Below are positions 294 through 9,791 of a stretch of DNA of 64,000 nucleotides, one piece after another. The notes below the pieces were generated by a model. It had not been told where the DNA came from. It searched no databases and saw nothing but the letters and a program-made list of their open reading frames with translations. This stretch comes from Armatimonadota bacterium (lineage in GTDB: Bacteria > Armatimonadota > UBA5829 > DTLH01), in assembly GCA_039680575.1 (NCBI GenBank), contig JBDKSP010000021.1:1-64000 (forward strand), in the 5' to 3' direction. How positions within the stretch are numbered: position 1 is the stretch's first letter; each line of letters opens with the position of its first letter. Made by a program: the position numbers and the translations under genes.

Positions 294-1893
294 TTGGTTA
301 TTGGAAATAACAATAAGAACATACAGCATACAAGGCACAAAGCGGTTATCTATGCCCGCGTTTCCTCTAAAGAGCAGGAGAAAGAGGGCTTCTCAATACC
401 CGCACAACTCAAGCTCTTGCAGGGCTATGCAGAACAGCACGGCTTCAAGGTTGTGCAGGAGTTCACAGACGTGGAAACGGCAAAAAAGCAGGTCGCACAG
501 CATTCAATGAGATGATAGCCTTCCTGAAGAAGCAGAACGCGGGCAAGCAAACCGGCCAACCGTGCCGTGCTATTCTGGTGGAAAAGACAGACCGCCTATA
601 CCGCAACCTCAAGGACTGGGTGACGCTGGATGAACTCGGCTTGGAAATCCACTTTGTAAAGGAAGGCGTTGTGCTTTCCAATGACTCCCGCTCAGCCGAG
701 AAGTTCATGCACGGCATTAAAGTGCTGATGGCAAAGAACTACATCGACAACCTTTCGGAGGAAACGAAGAAGGGCATGCTCGAAAAGGCCGCACAGGGGA
801 TTTATCCGTCATTTGCGCCGATTGGGTACTTGAATGTCGAGTGCAACGATAGACGTTATATACAACCAGACCCAAAGACTGCCCCAACAATCAAGAAGCT
901 CTATGAGTGGTATGCAAGTGGAAGCTACTCCCTCAAAGCTATAACGGATAAGGCTCATGAAGAAGGATTGCGTTCCGTAAGTCAGGGGCCAAGATTCTGA
1001 AAAGCCATGTCCATCAAATACTTACCAACTGCATATACTATGGTGAGTTCGACTGGGACGGACAGACCTACCAAGGGATTCATGAACCTCTGGTATCGCG
1101 GGAACTGTGGAAGAAGGTGCAAGACGTGTTATCCGACAACGGGAATCATCGAGCACGGCAACAGAAGCATGAATGGGCATTTCAAGGCTTGGTTTCATGC
1201 GGTCATTGTGGCTGTGCGCTGACGGCTGAAAAGAAAAAAGGCCGGTACGTGTATTACCACTGTACCGGCCACAAAGGGTGTCCTGAGAAGTATGTGCGTG
1301 AGGAAGTCCTCGCAGAGCAGTTCGGGGAAGCTCTGAAGGCTATCAAGCTTGAGGGTGATGTGCTGGAATGGGTTGTCTCTGCTCTAAAGTCCAGCCATGA
1401 GGATGAACAGCGATACCACAACGAGATAATCTCATCTCTACAACGGGATTATGCGCGGCTTCAGCATCGGCTTGACCAAATGTATGTAGATAAGCTGGAC
1501 GGCAAAATCTCTCAAGAATTCCATGACCAGAAGAGCGCTGAATGGCGCAAGGAACAGTCCGAAGTCCATAGAAAGATGGAGAAACACGAGAATGCCAACT
1601 ACTCTTACATGGAAGAGGGCATAAAAATTCTCGAACTCTCAAATCGAGCGTGGGAGCTGTATGAAAAGCAGGAAATGACCGAAAAACGGAGACTGCTGGA
1701 TTTTGTATTCTCGAACTCTACATGGGCCTGTGGAAAACTCACGCCGAATTACAAGAAACCCTTCGATTTGATCTCAGAAATGGTGGTATTTCAAAAAGAG
1801 GAAGAAGAGAGAACGGGTACAAAGTTCGATAAAACTGCCCAAAATGAAAACTGGCTCCCCCGCGTGGACTCGAACCACGAACCTACTGGTTAA
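294..1893 (+). pseudogene. Large serine recombinase/integrase split by two frameshifts
   Basis: Catalytic YARVSSKEQ, VEKTDRLYRN, recombinase domain (ILTNCIYYGEF...GIHEPLVSRELW), CGHCG zinc ribbon and coiled coil. Frameshifts at ~482-487 and ~970-975. Confidence 0.85.
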
Positions 1894-1927
1894 CAGCCAG
1901 CCGCTCTGCCGATTGAGCTACAGGGGA
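1852..1927 (-). tRNA. tRNA-Asn (GTT)
   Basis: Reverse complement TCCCCTGTAGCTCAATCGGCAGAGCGGCTGGCTGTTAACCAGTAGGTTCGTGGTTCGAGTCCACGCGGGGGAGCCA: 76 nt, cloverleaf, GTT anticodon, encoded CCA. Confidence 0.97.
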
Positions 1928-1996: not shown

Positions 1997-3346
1997 CTAA
2001 TGGCTCGTGAGTTTCGACTGAGCCCCACGGAGCATTTTAGCGGCAATTTCCGATTTAGGGTTTTCGTCTCGCAGTGCCCGGAACTCGTCAACAGCCTGTT
2101 TGTTCAAGCCGACTGATTCGTAGACAGTGCCGAGGACAAGATGCGAGTTATGGTATTCACGCTCTGCGCGAGAGATGAGATCGGACTCTTTGCCGGTAAG
2201 AACACGGAAACTGGCAGCCCGGGAAGATTCCCATTCCGCCATTTCACCTCTCCGTGCCATAATCCGCCATTTATAGAAACCGCCAGGGAGTTCCTGTTCC
2301 GGCTGGTAGTTTGCGTCTTTTGTTTCGACATGGACGACAGGTGTGCCGTCATATTTGTAGATCTCTACCCTGTATTTGGATGCGCCTTCTACAGGTTCCC
2401 AGCTAAATGTCGCATCACGTTCTGCAATCGCATCCGGGGCAGGGGACATCTTGAGATCGATAGGGTCCCAGTAACCTCTAAGCGCACCGGTCGGCGCCAT
2501 CGCAACTTGAAAACTTGAAGGAGCAGAACCGGTCTTTACCTTCTTTTCGACAAGTGCAGCAATCTGGGCTTCCAAGTCCTTGCCGTTGGTCTTGATTGCG
2601 ATATTTCCGCCGCTCTTTCCTACGGTTACGCCGCCGTCATGCACTTCAGCGACGAATACGGGCTCCTCTGGAGTCTTAGGAGCAGCAACAGGTCTGACAT
2701 GAGGCATATTATGCTTTTTGACCAGGCCATTAGCTTTAGAATCCGACTTTATATTCAAATCCATAGGCGGATTCGACTTTATACCGTGTCTTGCCTCAGG
2801 GCTTCCGGTAGGCGGGACGACTGCAACTCTATCGGTTTTGACAGGTTTCTTCTCGGCTAGCGGTTTATTTACAACGGGTCCCGTTTGAGACATAAGGAAG
2901 ATAGCAGTAACCGCCGCGATACCGCCGGCTGTGGCTGTGACGTTCTTCCAGCTAAAGATATTCCAATGCTGCCGTGGTCTTGCATAAAGCCCGGGGCGAA
3001 CCGTTATCTGCGGGGCGAGCGAAGCTCTAGACCGTGCTGCCTGAAGCGTCTCAACATCTCTTGAGCAGTATTCGCACATGCCGATATGCCGCTCGATCCA
3101 CTGGTGGGTCTCATGCGAGAGAGTTTCATCCACATAAGCGGACAATTCTTCGTATTCGGGACAGCCTTCGGCAGCGAGAACAGCGTCACCGATAGACCAT
3201 GCAGCGCGTTTATATTCGGTAAGGGCAGCCAGTTTCTCACGGCAAGCCGGACACGAACGTATATGTTCAGCCGCGCCGGGTATATCTTTTGCCGGAATTG
3301 CGCCGAGAAGATACAGCTTCAGTTGTTTGTCGTTAAAGCACTGCAT
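1997..3346 (-). CDS. Anti-sigma-like membrane protein with two zf-HC2 zinc fingers and a C-terminal beta-sandwich/TPR-like region
   Basis: HIRSCPAC and HIGMCEYC motifs, one TM helix, Pro/Lys-rich linker. Confidence 0.65.
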   Translation of the reverse strand: MQCFNDKQLKLYLLGAIPAKDIPGAAEHIRSCPACREKLAALTEYKRAAWSIGDAVLAAEGCPEYEELSAYVDETLSHETHQWIERHIGMCEYCSRDVETLQAARSRASLAPQITVRPGLYARPRQHWNIFSWKNVTATAGGIAAVTAIFLMSQTGPVVNKPLAEKKPVKTDRVAVVPPTGSPEARHGIKSNPPMDLNIKSDSKANGLVKKHNMPHVRPVAAPKTPEEPVFVAEVHDGGVTVGKSGGNIAIKTNGKDLEAQIAALVEKKVKTGSAPSSFQVAMAPTGALRGYWDPIDLKMSPAPDAIAERDATFSWEPVEGASKYRVEIYKYDGTPVVHVETKDANYQPEQELPGGFYKWRIMARRGEMAEWESSRAASFRVLTGKESDLISRAEREYHNSHLVLGTVYESVGLNKQAVDEFRALRDENPKSEIAAKMLRGAQSKLTSH

Positions 3347-3568: not shown

Positions 3569-4927
3569 TTAAGGACTCCAGCGTTCAATTACGATCTTTT
3601 TCGCATGGTCTTTATCCCATTGTTTGAGGCGGCCTTCTATCACTTCGTTTGTGAGATAATCTTTGATTTCGCCGACCAGGGCTCCCGGCTCTATGCCCAG
3701 AATATCCATTATCTCCCGTCCAGTCAGCGGACTTGCCATCGCCTCCACATCCGTCTCGGATTTCACCTTTTCGATGTGCTGCCGGAGTTTGTCGAGATCG
3801 ACGGAAGGCATTGACATATTCGCAGCGGATTTATCGGCATGGGTCAGTGTTATAAGCGCATCTAGGTCCGGTCCGGCGTCACGTATCAGCCTGCGGACGG
3901 CTGCGTCTTTCCATTCTTCGTCATATTCGCCGACTCTCAAATGCATATCGATGATTTTGACGACGCGGGCGGTTATTTCGTTAGGATACCGGAGGCGGCT
4001 TAATACTTTTCTTGTTATATTCGCCCCGACGTGCTGGTGTGTGTAAAAATGCACCTGTCCTTCACCATCTATGGAGCGGGTTGCGGGTTTTCCGATGTCA
4101 TGAAACAGCGCTGCAAGTCTCAGGTGAAGCTCGGAGTCTTCCGGCAGGATTTCGAGCGCCTTTAATGTGTGAGTCCATACATCATATATATGGTAGATGT
4201 TTTGCGTGATGCCGTACATTTCCTCGAGTTCCGGCGCAAACTCCGATAGGAGCCCGGTTTCGCGGAGCATCTCGACAGCTCTGGCTCGTTCCCGTGTCAT
4301 GAGCATCTTCGAGAACTCATCCCTTATGCGTTCTTTGCTGATAATCTCCAACCGGTGGTATTTTTTATGGATTGCCTGGTAAGTCTCATCATCTATCCTG
4401 AAACGGAACCGGACCGCGAACCTTATTGCTCTCAGCATCCGCAGCGGATCGTCTTCGAACGTCAAGAGGGGGTCCGCAGGGGTCTGGATAACACCGTCCT
4501 TCAGGTCGATCATTCCACGGCCGGTGAGATCCAATACCTCGTCGGTGTGCAGGTTTTCCATCAGGGTATTGATAGTGAAATCCCTTCGATAAGCGTCTGC
4601 AGCAAGGGTGGCTGGCACGACATCCGGTTTGCGGCTCTCCGGTGCGTAGGATTCGCTTCTGGCGCTTACAAGCTCCACCTGTTGTCCGCCGACAGATATC
4701 ATAGCCGTTCCGAACCTGGGGAAGATGACGGGTTTGTAATCGGTTATCCCTTTATCGAAAAGAAAAGCGGCCAGAGAGGCGGCATTACCCTCGAGTACTA
4801 TGTCTATATCTTCCTCGAGAGGCAGGCCGAGTATCTTATCGCGTACGATACCGCCGACGAGATACAGCCTGCCCTCGTAATCCGTTCCCTGGGTCGCGTC
4901 TCTAAGTATGTCAAGGGCATCAGCCAT
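3569..4927 (-). CDS. cca: CCA tRNA nucleotidyltransferase with HD domain
   Basis: GGIVRD, DIDI, RRDFTIN, DDPLRMLRAIRF and HDIGKP motifs. Confidence 0.88.
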   Translation of the reverse strand: MADALDILRDATQGTDYEGRLYLVGGIVRDKILGLPLEEDIDIVLEGNAASLAAFLFDKGITDYKPVIFPRFGTAMISVGGQQVELVSARSESYAPESRKPDVVPATLAADAYRRDFTINTLMENLHTDEVLDLTGRGMIDLKDGVIQTPADPLLTFEDDPLRMLRAIRFAVRFRFRIDDETYQAIHKKYHRLEIISKERIRDEFSKMLMTRERARAVEMLRETGLLSEFAPELEEMYGITQNIYHIYDVWTHTLKALEILPEDSELHLRLAALFHDIGKPATRSIDGEGQVHFYTHQHVGANITRKVLSRLRYPNEITARVVKIIDMHLRVGEYDEEWKDAAVRRLIRDAGPDLDALITLTHADKSAANMSMPSVDLDKLRQHIEKVKSETDVEAMASPLTGREIMDILGIEPGALVGEIKDYLTNEVIEGRLKQWDKDHAKKIVIERWSP

Positions 4928-5555
4928 TGTTAAGTCGGCCTATGGCATCATTGATGGACTGTTCGAGTTCCTGCTGCCGGATTGTGACTGTGAGGTCGCC
5001 TCTCGTCCGTTCCAGCACGCCGCGGACCATATCGGTAGTGCGTCGAAGTCCTCCTGTGAGCGCATCAGGGTAATCGAATGTGACCAGGATATAGTATGCC
5101 TCATCCATAACCTGAAGTATCTGCTCTCCGCGTTCATACTCGCCAAGCCGGATGATGTCCAGCACGCGCCTGCGGCATTCCCCGACGGCTTCTCCAAGCC
5201 CGTTCAGGTAGGGAGCGCACTCGACACCTATTTCCTGGTGGCTGGGCAGCCGGTCGTTCAGGACGATTGCCATTGTGAGTATCGACTCGGCGTGCTCTTT
5301 CTGCGCGTCCTGAACATAACCAGTATAATAGATGTCCAGATGCGCCTGAAGCAACTCCTTAGTTTCGATTACCTTCTTTCTGGCTTCGCTGATAAGCTGT
5401 CTTGCGTCGTCGAATTCATCTCTGTGAATCGCTCGGATCGCATTTGCGGAGTTTCGGATGATCTCACGGGAGAGCTTCAGCGCCTGCTCACGAGCGGAGT
5501 TTTTAAGGTCGAGTTCTGACCGTATATCTTCGGCTATAGTTCCAAGATTATCCAA
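4920..5555 (-). CDS. Translin/TRAX (C3PO)-family protein
   Basis: All-helical 211 aa with REQALKLSREI, QKEHAE and YLNGLGEAVGECRR motifs, plus LRRTTDMVRGVLERT. Confidence 0.85.
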   Translation of the reverse strand: MDNLGTIAEDIRSELDLKNSAREQALKLSREIIRNSANAIRAIHRDEFDDARQLISEARKKVIETKELLQAHLDIYYTGYVQDAQKEHAESILTMAIVLNDRLPSHQEIGVECAPYLNGLGEAVGECRRRVLDIIRLGEYERGEQILQVMDEAYYILVTFDYPDALTGGLRRTTDMVRGVLERTRGDLTVTIRQQELEQSINDAIGRLNNG

Positions 5556-5597
5556 CTTTCTGATCCTTTCCTTATCTTTTGTATTGACTGATAGAGT

Positions 5598-5626
5598 ATT
5601 TTAGCCGACCAGACACGAAACGGCAA
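5598..5626 (-). promoter_or_regulatory. Putative sigma70 promoter of translin-cca
   Basis: TTGCCG-17-TAAAAT on the minus strand. Confidence 0.55.
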
Positions 5627-5641: not shown

Positions 5642-5704
5642 GGCCGCATGGCAGCCTGACGGCTGCATGGCAGCCTGACGGCTGCATGGCAGCCTATCGG
5701 CTGC
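5642..5704. repeat. 19-bp palindromic tandem repeat (3.3 copies)
   Basis: Unit GGCTGCATGGCAGCCTGAC at 5642, 5661 and 5680, partial at 5699. Confidence 0.9.
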
Positions 5705-5708
5705 CTAG

Positions 5709-5737: not shown

Positions 5738-5816
5738 TTCCGAGTGCAGCAATCAGCATATATACAAATAATTGTATCTCCATAAGTATTCCCGGAGTTG
5801 GAGGATTAAAGAACCT

Positions 5817-6182
5817 TTGAGCAAGAAGAAATACGATACTATCCGTGATCTTGAAGGACAGCACATCGGGTTGTTCAAGAAGGCAGGGATTATAGGGTTG
5901 ATCGGACTGGTTCTTGCCATGTTTGGGTCCGGCACGGTTTTGACGATTTTCGGAATCGGAATGATTGTCATAGGCGCAGGGATATTCTTCTACGGTATGA
6001 TAGTGATGATGAGAATACAGAAAGAGCCTACCAGGACTGTTTATTGCCCTTACTGTGCCAGCAAGAACGATCTGTTTATAAGCAGACAGGAATTCGCCTG
6101 TGATATCTGCGGGCGGAGAATAAAGATCTCTCCGTCAGGCGAACCGATTCCCATCGAACCTATCGATGACGATGATGATTAG
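5817..6182 (+). CDS. Small membrane protein with C-terminal zinc ribbon
   Basis: Two TM helices, CPYC...CDIC. GGAGG precedes TTG at 5817. Confidence 0.7.
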   Translation: MSKKKYDTIRDLEGQHIGLFKKAGIIGLIGLVLAMFGSGTVLTIFGIGMIVIGAGIFFYGMIVMMRIQKEPTRTVYCPYCASKNDLFISRQEFACDICGRRIKISPSGEPIPIEPIDDDDD

Positions 6183-6197
6183 GCCCCCCAGTAGATT

Positions 6198-7328
6198 ATG
6201 AGAATAGCACATCTAGCGGATGTCCACCTTGGGTATCGCGCGTACAACCGAGTGACTCGCCAGGGTATGAACCTGCGCGAGGCGGACGTGTTCAATGTAT
6301 TCCGGCAGGCAATGAGGAAGGTCGTGGAGATCCAACCGGACCTGATTGTCATCGCAGGAGACCTTTTCCACGTCGTCCGACCGTCGAACCTGTGTATCGA
6401 GAATACCTTTAAAGAGTTTAAAAATATACGCAATAAAATGAAAGCGCCGATTATTCTGATTGGTGGAAATCATGACTCACCTCGCTCGATAGACACCGGA
6501 TGCATTCTTGATCTGCTGACAAATATACCCGGTGTATATGTGGCGCACAGCGATTACAGAGGCATAGCCATTCCAGAGATCGATACGACAGTCTTCTGCC
6601 TCTGCCACCGTGCCCTCGCGGGGCTTTCCGGCCTCAAAATCGAACCTGATCCGGCAAGCCGGTATAATGTGCTGGCAGTACACGGCACACTGGAAGGAAT
6701 ATCACGGAATTTCTACGATGTCACGCAGCCGATAACCCGCGCGCAGATCATGCACGACGGCTGGGACTATATCGCCCTCGGACATTATCATTTGCACGAG
6801 AAACTGGCCGATAACTCATACTATTCCGGCTCGCTCGAATATACGAGCTTCAACATCTGGGAGGAATCGAACAAGCCGAAAGGGTTCATCGAGTTCGATC
6901 TGGATGAACGCAAGCTGGTAAAGTTTCATAAAACGAACCCGAGAGAAGTAATCGACCTGCGGGCTGTGGATGCCGAAGAGCTTACCGCCGCGGAGATAAG
7001 CCAGTTGATACAGATGAGGGTCGAAGGCATCTCCGGCGGGCACAAAGAGAAGGTAGTTCGGCTTGTAGTCGATAATGTGCCGAAATCCGTAATCCCGGAC
7101 CTGGACTACCAGTCGATCCGCAGGATACGAAGCGAAGCGGTGCATTTCGATGTCCAGCTGAGACCCCGCAAGAAAGAATCTATAGTAACTACGAACGGGG
7201 AATCGCGGACGTCTCTTCCTCTTGAGGAGGAATGGCGCCAATTTGCAAAGGGCTACGAACTCCCCGGAGGCATCGACAGAGAAAGCCTCGTATCGGAGGG
7301 GCTGGAATATATTGGCGGTGTTGAGTAA
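6198..7328 (+). CDS. sbcD: SbcD/Mre11 nuclease
   Basis: HLADVHLG, AGDLFH, GNHD and ALGHYH motifs; adjacent to SMC ATPase. Confidence 0.9.
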   Translation: MRIAHLADVHLGYRAYNRVTRQGMNLREADVFNVFRQAMRKVVEIQPDLIVIAGDLFHVVRPSNLCIENTFKEFKNIRNKMKAPIILIGGNHDSPRSIDTGCILDLLTNIPGVYVAHSDYRGIAIPEIDTTVFCLCHRALAGLSGLKIEPDPASRYNVLAVHGTLEGISRNFYDVTQPITRAQIMHDGWDYIALGHYHLHEKLADNSYYSGSLEYTSFNIWEESNKPKGFIEFDLDERKLVKFHKTNPREVIDLRAVDAEELTAAEISQLIQMRVEGISGGHKEKVVRLVVDNVPKSVIPDLDYQSIRRIRSEAVHFDVQLRPRKKESIVTTNGESRTSLPLEEEWRQFAKGYELPGGIDRESLVSEGLEYIGGVE

Positions 7329-9791
7329 ATGCAGCTAATATCACTTGATTTGACCAATTTCAGACAGCATAGGGACACGCGTTTGGACTTCCTTCCGGGG
7401 GTGACGGGCATTATCGGCAAGAACGGTTCTGGGAAATCGACTGTTCTTGAGGCGATGGCATGGGCGCTCTATGGCAGTGCTGCTCTTCGGGGGAAAAACG
7501 AGACTGTCCGATGCAAATCCGCGGAAGGGAACGCCCCGGCGGAGGTTGCACTGGCTTTCGGTCTCGGCGCACATGAATACAGAGTTACCCGCAGGCTGGA
7601 AGCATCCGGTAGAACGTCGGCAAATCTGCTCATAGATGGTGTTTCAGCCCGTACAGGGTTCAAGGAAGTGACCGAATCTATAACAAAGCTGCTCGGTATG
7701 GACTACCAGGCGTTCTTTACCAGCTTCTTCACAGCCCAGAAAGAAATAGATTTCATGCGCGGGATGGATGGCCGACAGCGCGCCGCCGCCGTCACCCGGA
7801 TGCTTGGTTACGAGCGCCTTGTACGCGCGAGAGAAAAAGCAAACCAGGACAGGCTCGGGCTGCAGCACCAGATAGACGGATTGGAACGCGGTCTTGGAGA
7901 CCCTGAAGAGATCAAAAGACGCAAATTCGATGCGGAGTCGGCTAAAGCCGAGTCAGAAAAGGTGCTGAAAGCTGTAACAAAAAGGGAAGATGCAGCAAAA
8001 GCCGAAGTTGTCCGGTTGAAGCCGCTCCGGGAACTCTCCGAGGAGAAGGCCAAGCGAGCAGCGGAGCTGTCCCGCAGACTGGAACTTGACACTGCTGAAG
8101 AGACACGGGCTGCATCGCGCGTCAAAGAGCTGTCAGCGGAAATAGAGGACCTCTCAGAGAAGGCGAAGGAGCTGGAATCACTCGCGCCGCAGCTTGAGGA
8201 GTATAAAAAGGCTGGGGAAGAGTACCGCGTACTTGCTGAACTGCAGAAGCATGAGTCAAGGCGGGCGGCCATACAGGGGCAGCTCTCCGCGACGGAGAAA
8301 GATCTTGAAACGCTCAAGAAGCGCATAGATAAGCTGTCCGGTACGCCGGGTGATATCGAAAAGATCGATAAGGAATCCTCCGGTCTTGCCAAACAGCTCT
8401 CGGAAGTGGATGCACGGATAGAACGGGAGCGAAACGCGCTTGCATCCGCGCGGCAGAGAGCTGAACTGGAAATGGAACAGGCAGCGGCGCAAAAAGATGA
8501 GATTGCAGCGAAGAAGCGTACTATTGAAGAAGCAGGACTAAGCGGTAAATGCCCGACGTGTGAGCGCCCGCTTGCAGAGGAGCTTCCGAAGGTTCTTGCC
8601 GGGTTCGACGACCAGATTTCCAAACTCGGTTCGCGTATAGAGAAACTGCGCACGGCAATAGCGGGGCTTGAGGCGGAACCGGAGACACTTTCAGGTCTTT
8701 TGACCCTGAAGAAGGCGCTGGAAAGAGAGCGCGACGCCAAATATGGAGAGCGCACGGAAGTTGCATCGAAAAAATCCGAAATGGACGGATGCATCCGCGA
8801 GCAGAAATCAAAGAGCGAGACCGTCTCTGCGCTTAAGTCTGAAATAGAAAAGCTCCCATCAGGCTTCGATCAGGAGAAGTTCGAGATGCTGCGGAGCATT
8901 GGGGAAAGGCTGAAGCCCGTACGCGACCGGTCACTTGAGCTAAAAACCGCGCTCAATCGCCGTGACAACATCGAAGCGGACCTGAAACGCGAAGGAGAAG
9001 CGCTCTCACGTGTGAAATCGGAGCTCGAAGCGACAAGAACGGCATCGAGCGAGTTGAATTTCTCGCAGAAGGAGCATGAAAAGCTCGTCTTACTCTTTGA
9101 AGGGGCTGTAAGCGCGTCGAACGCGGTAAGTATCGAGACGGAACGCGCAAAAGGAGACCTGAAAGCCGCACAGACTGCCCTTACCGCTGCTGAAACGGAT
9201 GAAAAAGCATATAAAGTCAAAGAAGCAGAGCTCGGAAGTAAACGGCGCGAGCGTGCTGAACTGCAGACGCTTGCCGAAGCGTTCGATAATCTCCGAGTCG
9301 ATCTGAACAACCGCGCGGCTCCGGAACTGGCTGCCGCCGCGAGCGACCTGCTCTCCGAAATGACGGATGGCCGCTATACCTCGCTCGAAGTTAACGAGGA
9401 TTACGAGGCGATGATAAGAGACGATGGGGAACTGAAACCGATCATCTCCGGCGGTGAGGAAGATATCGTCAACCTGGCGCTGAGGCTCGCCGTGTCCAGA
9501 ATGATTGCGGACCGCGCCGGGCAGGACCTGTCACTGCTTGTCCTCGACGAGGTGTTCGGCTCGCTGGACGACATAAGGCGTGATAACGTGGTAGCGCTTC
9601 TGCAGGTATTGAAATGCAGGTTTGAACAGATAATCCTCATTACTCACGTGGAATCGATCCATGACTCGGTGGATAACTGTATCTGGGTAGACTACGACGA
9701 GATATCGAGGACCAGTAAGATCAGAATAGCGTCTTCTTCGGATGAAGAACACATCTCTACTGACGCATGTTCCCTAAAGAGTTTTGGGTGA
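7329..9791 (+). CDS. sbcC: SbcC/Rad50 SMC-family ATPase
   Basis: Walker A GKNGSGKST, CPTC zinc hook within coiled coil, SGGE signature, LVLDEVFGSLD. Confidence 0.9.
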   Translation: MQLISLDLTNFRQHRDTRLDFLPGVTGIIGKNGSGKSTVLEAMAWALYGSAALRGKNETVRCKSAEGNAPAEVALAFGLGAHEYRVTRRLEASGRTSANLLIDGVSARTGFKEVTESITKLLGMDYQAFFTSFFTAQKEIDFMRGMDGRQRAAAVTRMLGYERLVRAREKANQDRLGLQHQIDGLERGLGDPEEIKRRKFDAESAKAESEKVLKAVTKREDAAKAEVVRLKPLRELSEEKAKRAAELSRRLELDTAEETRAASRVKELSAEIEDLSEKAKELESLAPQLEEYKKAGEEYRVLAELQKHESRRAAIQGQLSATEKDLETLKKRIDKLSGTPGDIEKIDKESSGLAKQLSEVDARIERERNALASARQRAELEMEQAAAQKDEIAAKKRTIEEAGLSGKCPTCERPLAEELPKVLAGFDDQISKLGSRIEKLRTAIAGLEAEPETLSGLLTLKKALERERDAKYGERTEVASKKSEMDGCIREQKSKSETVSALKSEIEKLPSGFDQEKFEMLRSIGERLKPVRDRSLELKTALNRRDNIEADLKREGEALSRVKSELEATRTASSELNFSQKEHEKLVLLFEGAVSASNAVSIETERAKGDLKAAQTALTAAETDEKAYKVKEAELGSKRRERAELQTLAEAFDNLRVDLNNRAAPELAAAASDLLSEMTDGRYTSLEVNEDYEAMIRDDGELKPIISGGEEDIVNLALRLAVSRMIADRAGQDLSLLVLDEVFGSLDDIRRDNVVALLQVLKCRFEQIILITHVESIHDSVDNCIWVDYDEISRTSKIRIASSSDEEHISTDACSLKSFG

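Follow-up and report, generated by a model that had tools for sequence, protein, structure and literature searches.

A TRAX-type translin gene overlapping cca in a class of Armatimonadota: a lead toward RNA maintenance by a bacterial C3PO

A translin gene directly upstream of cca

The window analyzed here is a 64,000-nt stretch of an Armatimonadota genome (assembly GCA_039680575.1, contig JBDKSP010000021.1, positions 1 to 64,000; host genome G000). Its subject is a pair of genes on the minus strand, one for a TRAX-type translin, the prokaryotic C3PO subunit (4920..5555, 211 aa, TTG start), and one for a class II tRNA nucleotidyltransferase of the CCA-adding type with an HD domain (cca, 3569..4927, 452 aa). 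The translin belongs to a known nuclease family, its partner in a class-specific operon is a housekeeping repair enzyme, and the pair is a useful lead, not a demonstrated module. The balance of the evidence tips slightly toward one transcript that carries two RNA-maintenance enzymes acting in parallel, a scavenger of single-stranded RNA (ssRNA) and a tRNA-end repair enzyme.

The two genes overlap by 8 nt at the translin stop and the cca start (4920..4927, minus strand), and the cca ATG sits within the last codons of the translin gene. Both open reading frames (ORFs) and their overlap, reported in a first-pass annotation made from the letters of the window, were borne out, as were the identities of both products. 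A Shine-Dalgarno-like sequence, AAGGAAAGGA (5564..5573, minus strand), lies 8 nt 5′ of the translin start. The candidate sigma-70 promoter predicted for translin and cca, TTGCCG-17-TAAAAT (5598..5626, minus strand), matches the consensus at 9/12 positions. The earlier claim of one candidate promoter before the pair stood only in part: in this region alone the site is not above chance (five promoter-like sites found, against 4.2 ± 2.1 in shuffled sequences), but a site of at least 9/12 was present within 120 nt 5′ of translin in 14/28 loci where translin directly precedes cca (linked loci), against about 5% of shuffles. The two genes are probably co-transcribed and translationally coupled. The match found in RNA libraries was a single identical 152-nt contig inside translin, with no piece across the translin-cca junction.

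Identity and predicted active site of the translin

In phmmer searches, the 4920..5555 product matched AfTrax (E 1.5e-22, about 30% identity over 182 residues) and NEQ131, the subunit of NeC3PO (E 1.2e-7, 20% identity). The PRK14562 models of NCBIfam matched it with E values of 3.7e-80 to 4.6e-18, all below their cut-offs; NF011160, for example, scored 268 (E 3.7e-80) under a model cut-off of 291. These models carry the name 'haloacid dehalogenase superfamily protein', which does not fit the all-helical C3PO fold predicted for the protein. The AlphaFold model (pLDDT 97.4) is all-helical with a longer C-terminal helix at residues 170-210, and Foldseek aligned it to AfC3PO (TM 0.82, rmsd 1.4-1.8 Å for the best chains), NeC3PO (0.77) and human C3PO (0.80), the top 10 matches being chains of AfC3PO or NeC3PO. 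A search with the Pfam Translin profile, which had been proposed as a check, gave a sub-threshold score (PF01997, 16.9 bits under a gathering cut-off of 25.9), yet the AfTrax match and the fold still give the translin identity. Filing the protein as a eukaryotic translin, the inactive Tsn subunit, was rejected, as the PF01997 cut-off is not reached and the catalytic acids are present.

The acidic motifs that the first-pass annotation had singled out as TRAX-type, KEHAE (E87, E90) and GLGEAVGE (E122, E126), fall, in the alignment, on the metal-binding residues of AfTrax and NeC3PO (E82/E85/D117/E121 in the latter). The four codons lie, on the minus strand, at 5295-5297 (E87), 5286-5288 (E90), 5190-5192 (E122) and 5178-5180 (E126). 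Across 70 Armatimonadota homologs, E87, E90 and E126 were found in 70/70, and position 122 is E in 68 and D in 2. The basic residues R129, R171 and R172, equivalents of R124, R163 and R164 of NeC3PO, are similarly kept: R129 in 70/70, R171 as R in 62 and K in 8, and R172 in 65/70. Since the catalytic tetrad and the basic residues match NeC3PO, the protein is predicted to be an active nuclease subunit of the TRAX type. By analogy with AfC3PO and NeC3PO, we infer a homo-octamer with Mg-dependent cleavage, whose products would carry 5′-phosphate/3′-OH ends.

The CCA enzyme and the tRNA gene set

The 3569..4927 product contains PolyA_pol, PolyA_pol_RNAbd and HD domains, with the nucleotidyltransferase head at residues 21-147 (4487..4867) and the HD domain (PF01966, E 2.6e-11) at residues 244-367 (3827..4198). 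Filing it as the actinobacterial CCA equivalog TIGR02692 was rejected, the score of 319.3 bits (E 3.7e-95) being below the curated cut-off of 438.8. D40/D42, R114-R115-D116 and D160-P-L-R163 are invariant in 24 linked CCA enzymes; we take these to be the DxD, RRD and D-x-x-R catalytic or templating motifs of class II CCA enzymes. A flexible loop (R90-P101) is present and the poly(A)-polymerase-type G-R-R-F motif is absent, patterns that we assume to mark a CCA-adding enzyme. The position of the poly(A)-polymerase motif is described in PMC10673834. The HD metal ligands H253, H276, D277 and H293 are invariant in the same 24 enzymes, and D365 nearly so. No other class II nucleotidyltransferase match was found in G000 (96.8% complete), and thus no CC-adding, A-adding or poly(A) paralog.

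All 45 tRNA genes found by ARAGORN (45/45), as well as the tmRNA, end in an encoded CCA. The CCA enzyme of this host is therefore likely repair-only, in support of the repair role already proposed for it. In E. coli, where CCA is likewise encoded, repair is the presumed task of the CCA enzyme, whose HD domain takes off the cyclic phosphates that arise from spontaneous cleavage (PMC6961547, PMC10673834). One tRNA-Met of G038, a genome of family f4 in the same class, is without an encoded CCA, so the repair-only role need not hold class-wide.

Two observations concern nucleotidyltransferases in relatives of the host. Genus g10 (L247-L250) has two divergent class II enzymes, some without the flexible loop or the HD domain, a possible split into CC- and A-adding enzymes or a replacement. 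In family f8, 18/21 genomes gave no class II match with this query at E 1e-15, and none has translin; judged from this search, the family must have either a highly diverged CCA enzyme or one of a different type.

Conservation of the translin-cca order

Linkage was scored in all 53 available genomes of the host class, which fall into five families (f1-f5). Translin lies directly 5′ of cca in 37/53: f1 6/6, f3 2/2, f2 23/28, f4 6/6 and f5 0/11. The five f2 exceptions are three g10 genomes whose nucleotidyltransferases are divergent or doubled, a contig end (G017) and a genome without a translin match (G024). Most linked loci of f1, f2 and f3 have overlaps of 1-44 nt, and the rest have gaps of 15-187 nt. 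In f5, 11/11 genomes are unlinked though both genes are kept, and the CCA enzyme was HD-intact in 4/4 that were aligned.

Outside the class, adjacency was found in 0/86 Armatimonadota genomes, these being the ones with positions for both genes among the matches listed (35 translin and 105 nucleotidyltransferase rows were not included); the nearest pair was 3.3 kb apart and convergent. Similarly, cca was near translin in 0/80 loci with flanks from a pattern scan of GTDB that gave at least 120 matches; these loci are mostly from Chloroflexota, with 11 from Actinomycetota, a few from Armatimonadota and one from Methanolobus, and 65 of them have flanks of at least 5 kb. The linkage extends beyond close relatives, into four of the five class families, as the first-pass annotation would have it. 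A dedicated module, with the two genes linked wherever both occur, does not fit these counts.

Both flanks of the pair change between class genomes while the translin-cca order stays. The gene 3′ of cca is smpB in f4 (6/6, L069, L070 and L089 among them), giving a translin-cca-smpB run, rpoN (sigma-54) in most f2 loci inspected (L078-L086, L088, L090) and a zf-HC2 anti-sigma-like gene in most f1 loci (5 f1 genomes). Families group as expected in a quick CCA tree; f4 is not resolved with f1-f3, and the tree does not separate one origin of the linkage from two.

These data bear on the pathway that the first-pass annotation had drawn from the gene pair, a relay in which translin would cut damaged or precursor tRNA, the HD domain would heal the resulting 2′,3′-cyclic phosphate and the head domain would re-add CCA. 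Such a relay could draw on the retention of the pair in the 37 class genomes, on the near-invariance of the HD residues noted above and on the healing activity established for the E. coli HD domain (PMC6961547). The chemistry argues against it. NeC3PO is a two-cation nuclease like RNase H, in which a water molecule attacks phosphorus and the 3′ oxygen is the leaving group (PMC5100593); a mechanism of this kind implies 3′-OH products, which would leave no cyclic phosphate for the HD domain to heal. Moreover, the same HD-bearing enzyme occurs unlinked (in 11/11 f5 genomes, with 86/86 and 80/80 unlinked outside the class) and without translin, its ortholog being present in f29, a family with translin in 0/13 genomes. 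Finally, the linked genome G023 keeps the overlap despite an eroded HD site, without the D365 equivalent and nearby histidines. We consider the relay highly improbable.

Distribution and neighbors of translin in other lineages

Translin was found in 182/221 sampled Armatimonadota and 88/151 sampled Chloroflexota, and was not found in the Armatimonadota families f8 (0/21) and f29 (0/13). The statement that the family is rare in bacteria held for the 14 control genomes, where the three positives are all archaea, and failed for these two phyla, most of whose sampled genomes carry it. The named close homologs are from Armatimonadota. The gene is single-copy in G000 and in nearly all positive genomes, and searches of phage, plasmid and IMG/VR collections gave no match to it, as would suit a housekeeping gene of the chromosome; a mobile or defence origin was ruled out on the latter ground. 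No translin-cca fusion was seen among the 150 listed representatives of 50%-identity clusters, judged by length and with no search aimed at longer homologs, and three long matches that were inspected (P0281, P0157, P0155) are not cca fusions.

Elsewhere, translin sits in equally stable, unrelated gene orders. Anaerolineae and Chloroflexia have ssb-DUF3467-translin followed by a Cas4-like PD-(D/E)XK nuclease gene (L103, L108, L120, L153, L157, L165, L167), in some cases with NAD kinase and a recN-like gene, and Dehalococcoidia have rnhB-yraN-thiE-translin-hppA, with mnmA and proS beyond in some. The ssb/Cas4-like context is a possible link to single-stranded DNA (ssDNA) or repair. In Actinomycetota, a tRNA-Ala gene lies 45-74 nt 3′ of translin on the same strand in 7/11 loci (L096, L110, L113, L114, L121, L125, L154). 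SepRS is 3′ of translin in the Methanolobus locus, and a translin-SepRS order is described for archaea generally (PMC5424206). The 34 translin loci from other Armatimonadota classes have almost no common neighbors; one has dtd downstream.

The pairing with cca could then be a positional accident: translin would act on other substrates, such as mRNA decay fragments, or ssDNA and short duplexes in DNA repair, and cca would once have come under its promoter. The scarcity of common neighbors in those 34 loci speaks for this, as do the repair-type neighbors in Anaerolineae and Chloroflexia and the ability of NeC3PO to cut DNA as well (PMC5100593). A synteny control points the same way, since 20/27 close co-directional ortholog pairs from 400 kb of an f4 genome are still adjacent in G000 (f1), so that retention at such depth is usual. 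On the other side, the activity of NeC3PO on ssRNA exceeds that on ssDNA at least 10-fold, and C3PO of Neurospora breaks down 5′ fragments of pre-tRNA (as cited in PMC5100593); the tRNA-related genes that recur 3′ of translin also sit poorly with an accident. We give this explanation some weight while thinking it improbable.

The RNase repertoire of the class

RNase PH, RNase J, RNase E/G, RNase P RNA and an NrnA-sized DHH protein were found in G000, and a 768-aa frame presumably encodes PNPase. RNase R/II, RNase Z, T/Orn-type RNases and a stand-alone RNase D were not found in this 96.8% complete genome. Across the class, RNase R/II was present in 6/53 genomes, and RNase Z reached the cut-off in 0/25, the only near-full match being in G011 (genus g10); T/Orn-type DEDDh nucleases were not found in the five genomes tested (0/5). 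One linked genome, G038 of f4, encodes RNase R/II as well as RNase D. This set leaves room for another hydrolytic nuclease. By comparison, RNase R/II (PF00773) was detected in 39/221 Armatimonadota and 15/151 Chloroflexota, against 11/14 controls.

Several replacements by translin were considered and rejected. That of RNase Z, suggested by a five-genome screen, was ruled out by co-occurrence of the two in families f6, f9, f10, f16 and f19, and that of RNase P by the presence of RNase P RNA in 5/5 genomes. For RNase R/II there is no anti-correlation, in counts whose related genomes are not independent: it occurs in 28/182 translin-positive against 11/39 translin-negative Armatimonadota, and in 14/88 against 1/63 Chloroflexota.

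It is against this background that a tighter cooperation has to be weighed, in which translin would nibble single-stranded tails of tRNA or tmRNA to a 3′-OH and the CCA enzyme would refill or tag them. The targets would be trailers, uncharged CCA ends and faulty tRNAs tagged with CCACCA; translin would stand in for the RNase T or RNase R of E. coli, with no part for HD healing. The scarcity of RNase R/II, Z and T/Orn in the class and of RNase D in the host is what such a scheme would lead one to expect, and 3′-OH products would be direct substrates for CCA addition. The smpB gene 3′ of cca throughout f4 and the tRNA-related genes 3′ of translin in three lineages fit as well. The co-occurrence data, however, give no pattern of replacement for RNase R/II or RNase Z, and G038 keeps RNase R/II and RNase D beside a linked pair. 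The active sites of C3PO, moreover, face the inner cavity of the cage, and 18-bp duplexes are barely cut (PMC5100593). We regard trimming and refilling, or tagging and destruction, as unlikely. That bacterial C3PO is a quality-control nuclease for tRNA and tmRNA 3′ ends, with the CCA enzyme co-translated and SmpB added in one family, seems to us equally doubtful; if true, a bacterial C3PO would for the first time have a cellular role, and tRNA upkeep would be suggested as the ancestral job of the family.

A proposed model of two enzymes acting in parallel

The arrangement that we marginally favor, two RNA-maintenance enzymes made from one transcript, could work as follows. A single sigma-70 promoter 5′ of translin would drive both genes, with translational coupling. 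The TRAX-like nuclease would form a homo-octameric cage that disposes of leftover single-stranded RNA, likely including pieces of tRNA leaders and trailers; NeC3PO cuts long single strands (PMC5100593). The HD-bearing CCA enzyme would repair the 3′ ends of otherwise intact tRNAs, and its HD domain would heal spontaneous cyclic-phosphate damage rather than translin cuts. The pair would go back to a single early event in the class, and the dependence of cca on the translin promoter would have kept it together, aided by both genes serving constitutive RNA upkeep. The two enzymes would be independent in function, because the genes are unlinked in f5 (0/11) and in other Armatimonadota (0/86) and the CCA-HD ortholog is found in the translin-less f29.

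Three findings weigh against this arrangement. The synteny control, with 27 pairs from 400 kb, is a small one in which ancient operons predominate, and the translin-cca pair has outlasted changes of both its flanks across two orders. In addition, a tRNA-related gene lies directly 3′ of translin in three lineages (cca, tRNA-Ala and SepRS), a hint that the nuclease is tied to tRNA more closely than a general scavenger would be. For such a gene in 3/5 lineage-level orders, the probability by chance is 0.05-0.13 counting either side and 0.009-0.027 counting the 3′ side only, figures that rest on an assumed rate of 10-15% per side and on five contexts picked after looking, and that therefore give a hint only.

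The locus nevertheless offers something definite to test, namely a bacterial C3PO passed on by vertical inheritance, with its catalytic residues intact and its gene overlapping that for tRNA-end repair, in a class where the usual hydrolytic 3′ RNases are largely missing. It also shows that two phyla commonly carry a TRAX-like nuclease family which public records list as 'haloacid dehalogenase'. More likely, the pairing is mere inherited gene order, in which case its value lies mainly in annotation.

Other features of the window

Divergent from translin, 5772-9791 encodes a 136-aa membrane-like protein, for which two membrane segments are predicted and which has a zinc-ribbon-like motif (CPxC/CxxC). 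Next come sbcD and an sbcC that resembles archaeal Rad50; the best NCBIfam matches of these two are Mre11 and Rad50. Between the divergent promoters, and abutting the -35 box of the one on the sbcDC side, lie three tandem 19-bp copies (5642-5705) built on the palindrome GGCAGCC-N4-GGCTGC. The relative from the same genus has similar copies, and on contig C20 one is found about 30 nt 5′ of an alanine-racemase-like ORF; the copies could represent an operator or else a REP-like element.

On the 3′ side of cca follow a 449-aa zf-HC2 anti-sigma-like protein (1997-3346), with no adjoining ECF sigma gene, then tRNA-Asn (1852-1927, minus strand) and a serine-recombinase remnant. The tRNA-Asn gene was rejected as a part of the operon: it has its own promoter of perfect consensus (TTGACA-17-TATAAT, 1973-1945) and, among 20 class loci (L071-L090), is at this place only in the same-genus relative. 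The recombinase is split into resolvase, recombinase and zinc-ribbon pieces (512-1927), the last ORF running into the 3′ part of tRNA-Asn; by its sequence, it is a remnant of an element integrated at this tRNA gene.

Comparison with known systems

No description of a translin-cca pair or of an Armatimonadota translin was found in a literature search that left most subscription papers and supplements outside. For prokaryotic C3PO, that of this host and NeC3PO alike, the literature examined holds structures and in vitro chemistry only and no cellular role. Single-gene C3PO is known from archaea and Chloroflexi, the latter being noted as bacterial members of the family (PMC5100593).

The closest characterized relative is AfTrax/AfC3PO of Archaeoglobus fulgidus (PDB 3ZC0, 3ZC1), with which the translin shares the four aligned metal positions and the single-gene type, with a predicted homo-oligomer, and from which it differs in its bacterial host, Glu for Asp at the third ligand (E122), the longer C-terminal helix and the overlap with cca. 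NeC3PO of Nanoarchaeum equitans (PDB 5JR9, 5JRC, 5JRE) has equivalents of its E82/E85/D117/E121 and R124/R163/R164 in the translin and a similar fold (TM 0.77), but sequence identity is 20% and the present host has RNase P RNA. The translin-superfamily proteins of Chloroflexi (PRK14562) are nearer in sequence, at about 40-55% identity to the Chloroflexota homologs; the translin described here nevertheless scores below the model cut-off, and the Chloroflexota loci inspected are not beside cca.

On the side of the CCA enzyme, E. coli Cca, M. tuberculosis Rv3907c and TIGR02692 share the architecture of head, RNA-binding and HD domains, and CCA is encoded in all tRNA genes of the host, as in E. 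coli. Unlike E. coli, whose CCA enzyme shares end turnover with RNase T, R/II, Z and D, the host has none of these RNases at a detectable level of similarity. Finally, eukaryotic C3PO, made of translin and TRAX and, in Neurospora, serving the removal of pre-tRNA fragments, is encoded by two paralogs, whereas the bacterial protein comes from one gene, includes no inactive translin subunit and misses the PF01997 cut-off; the two have in common the fold (human TM 0.80) and the TRAX-type active-site residues.

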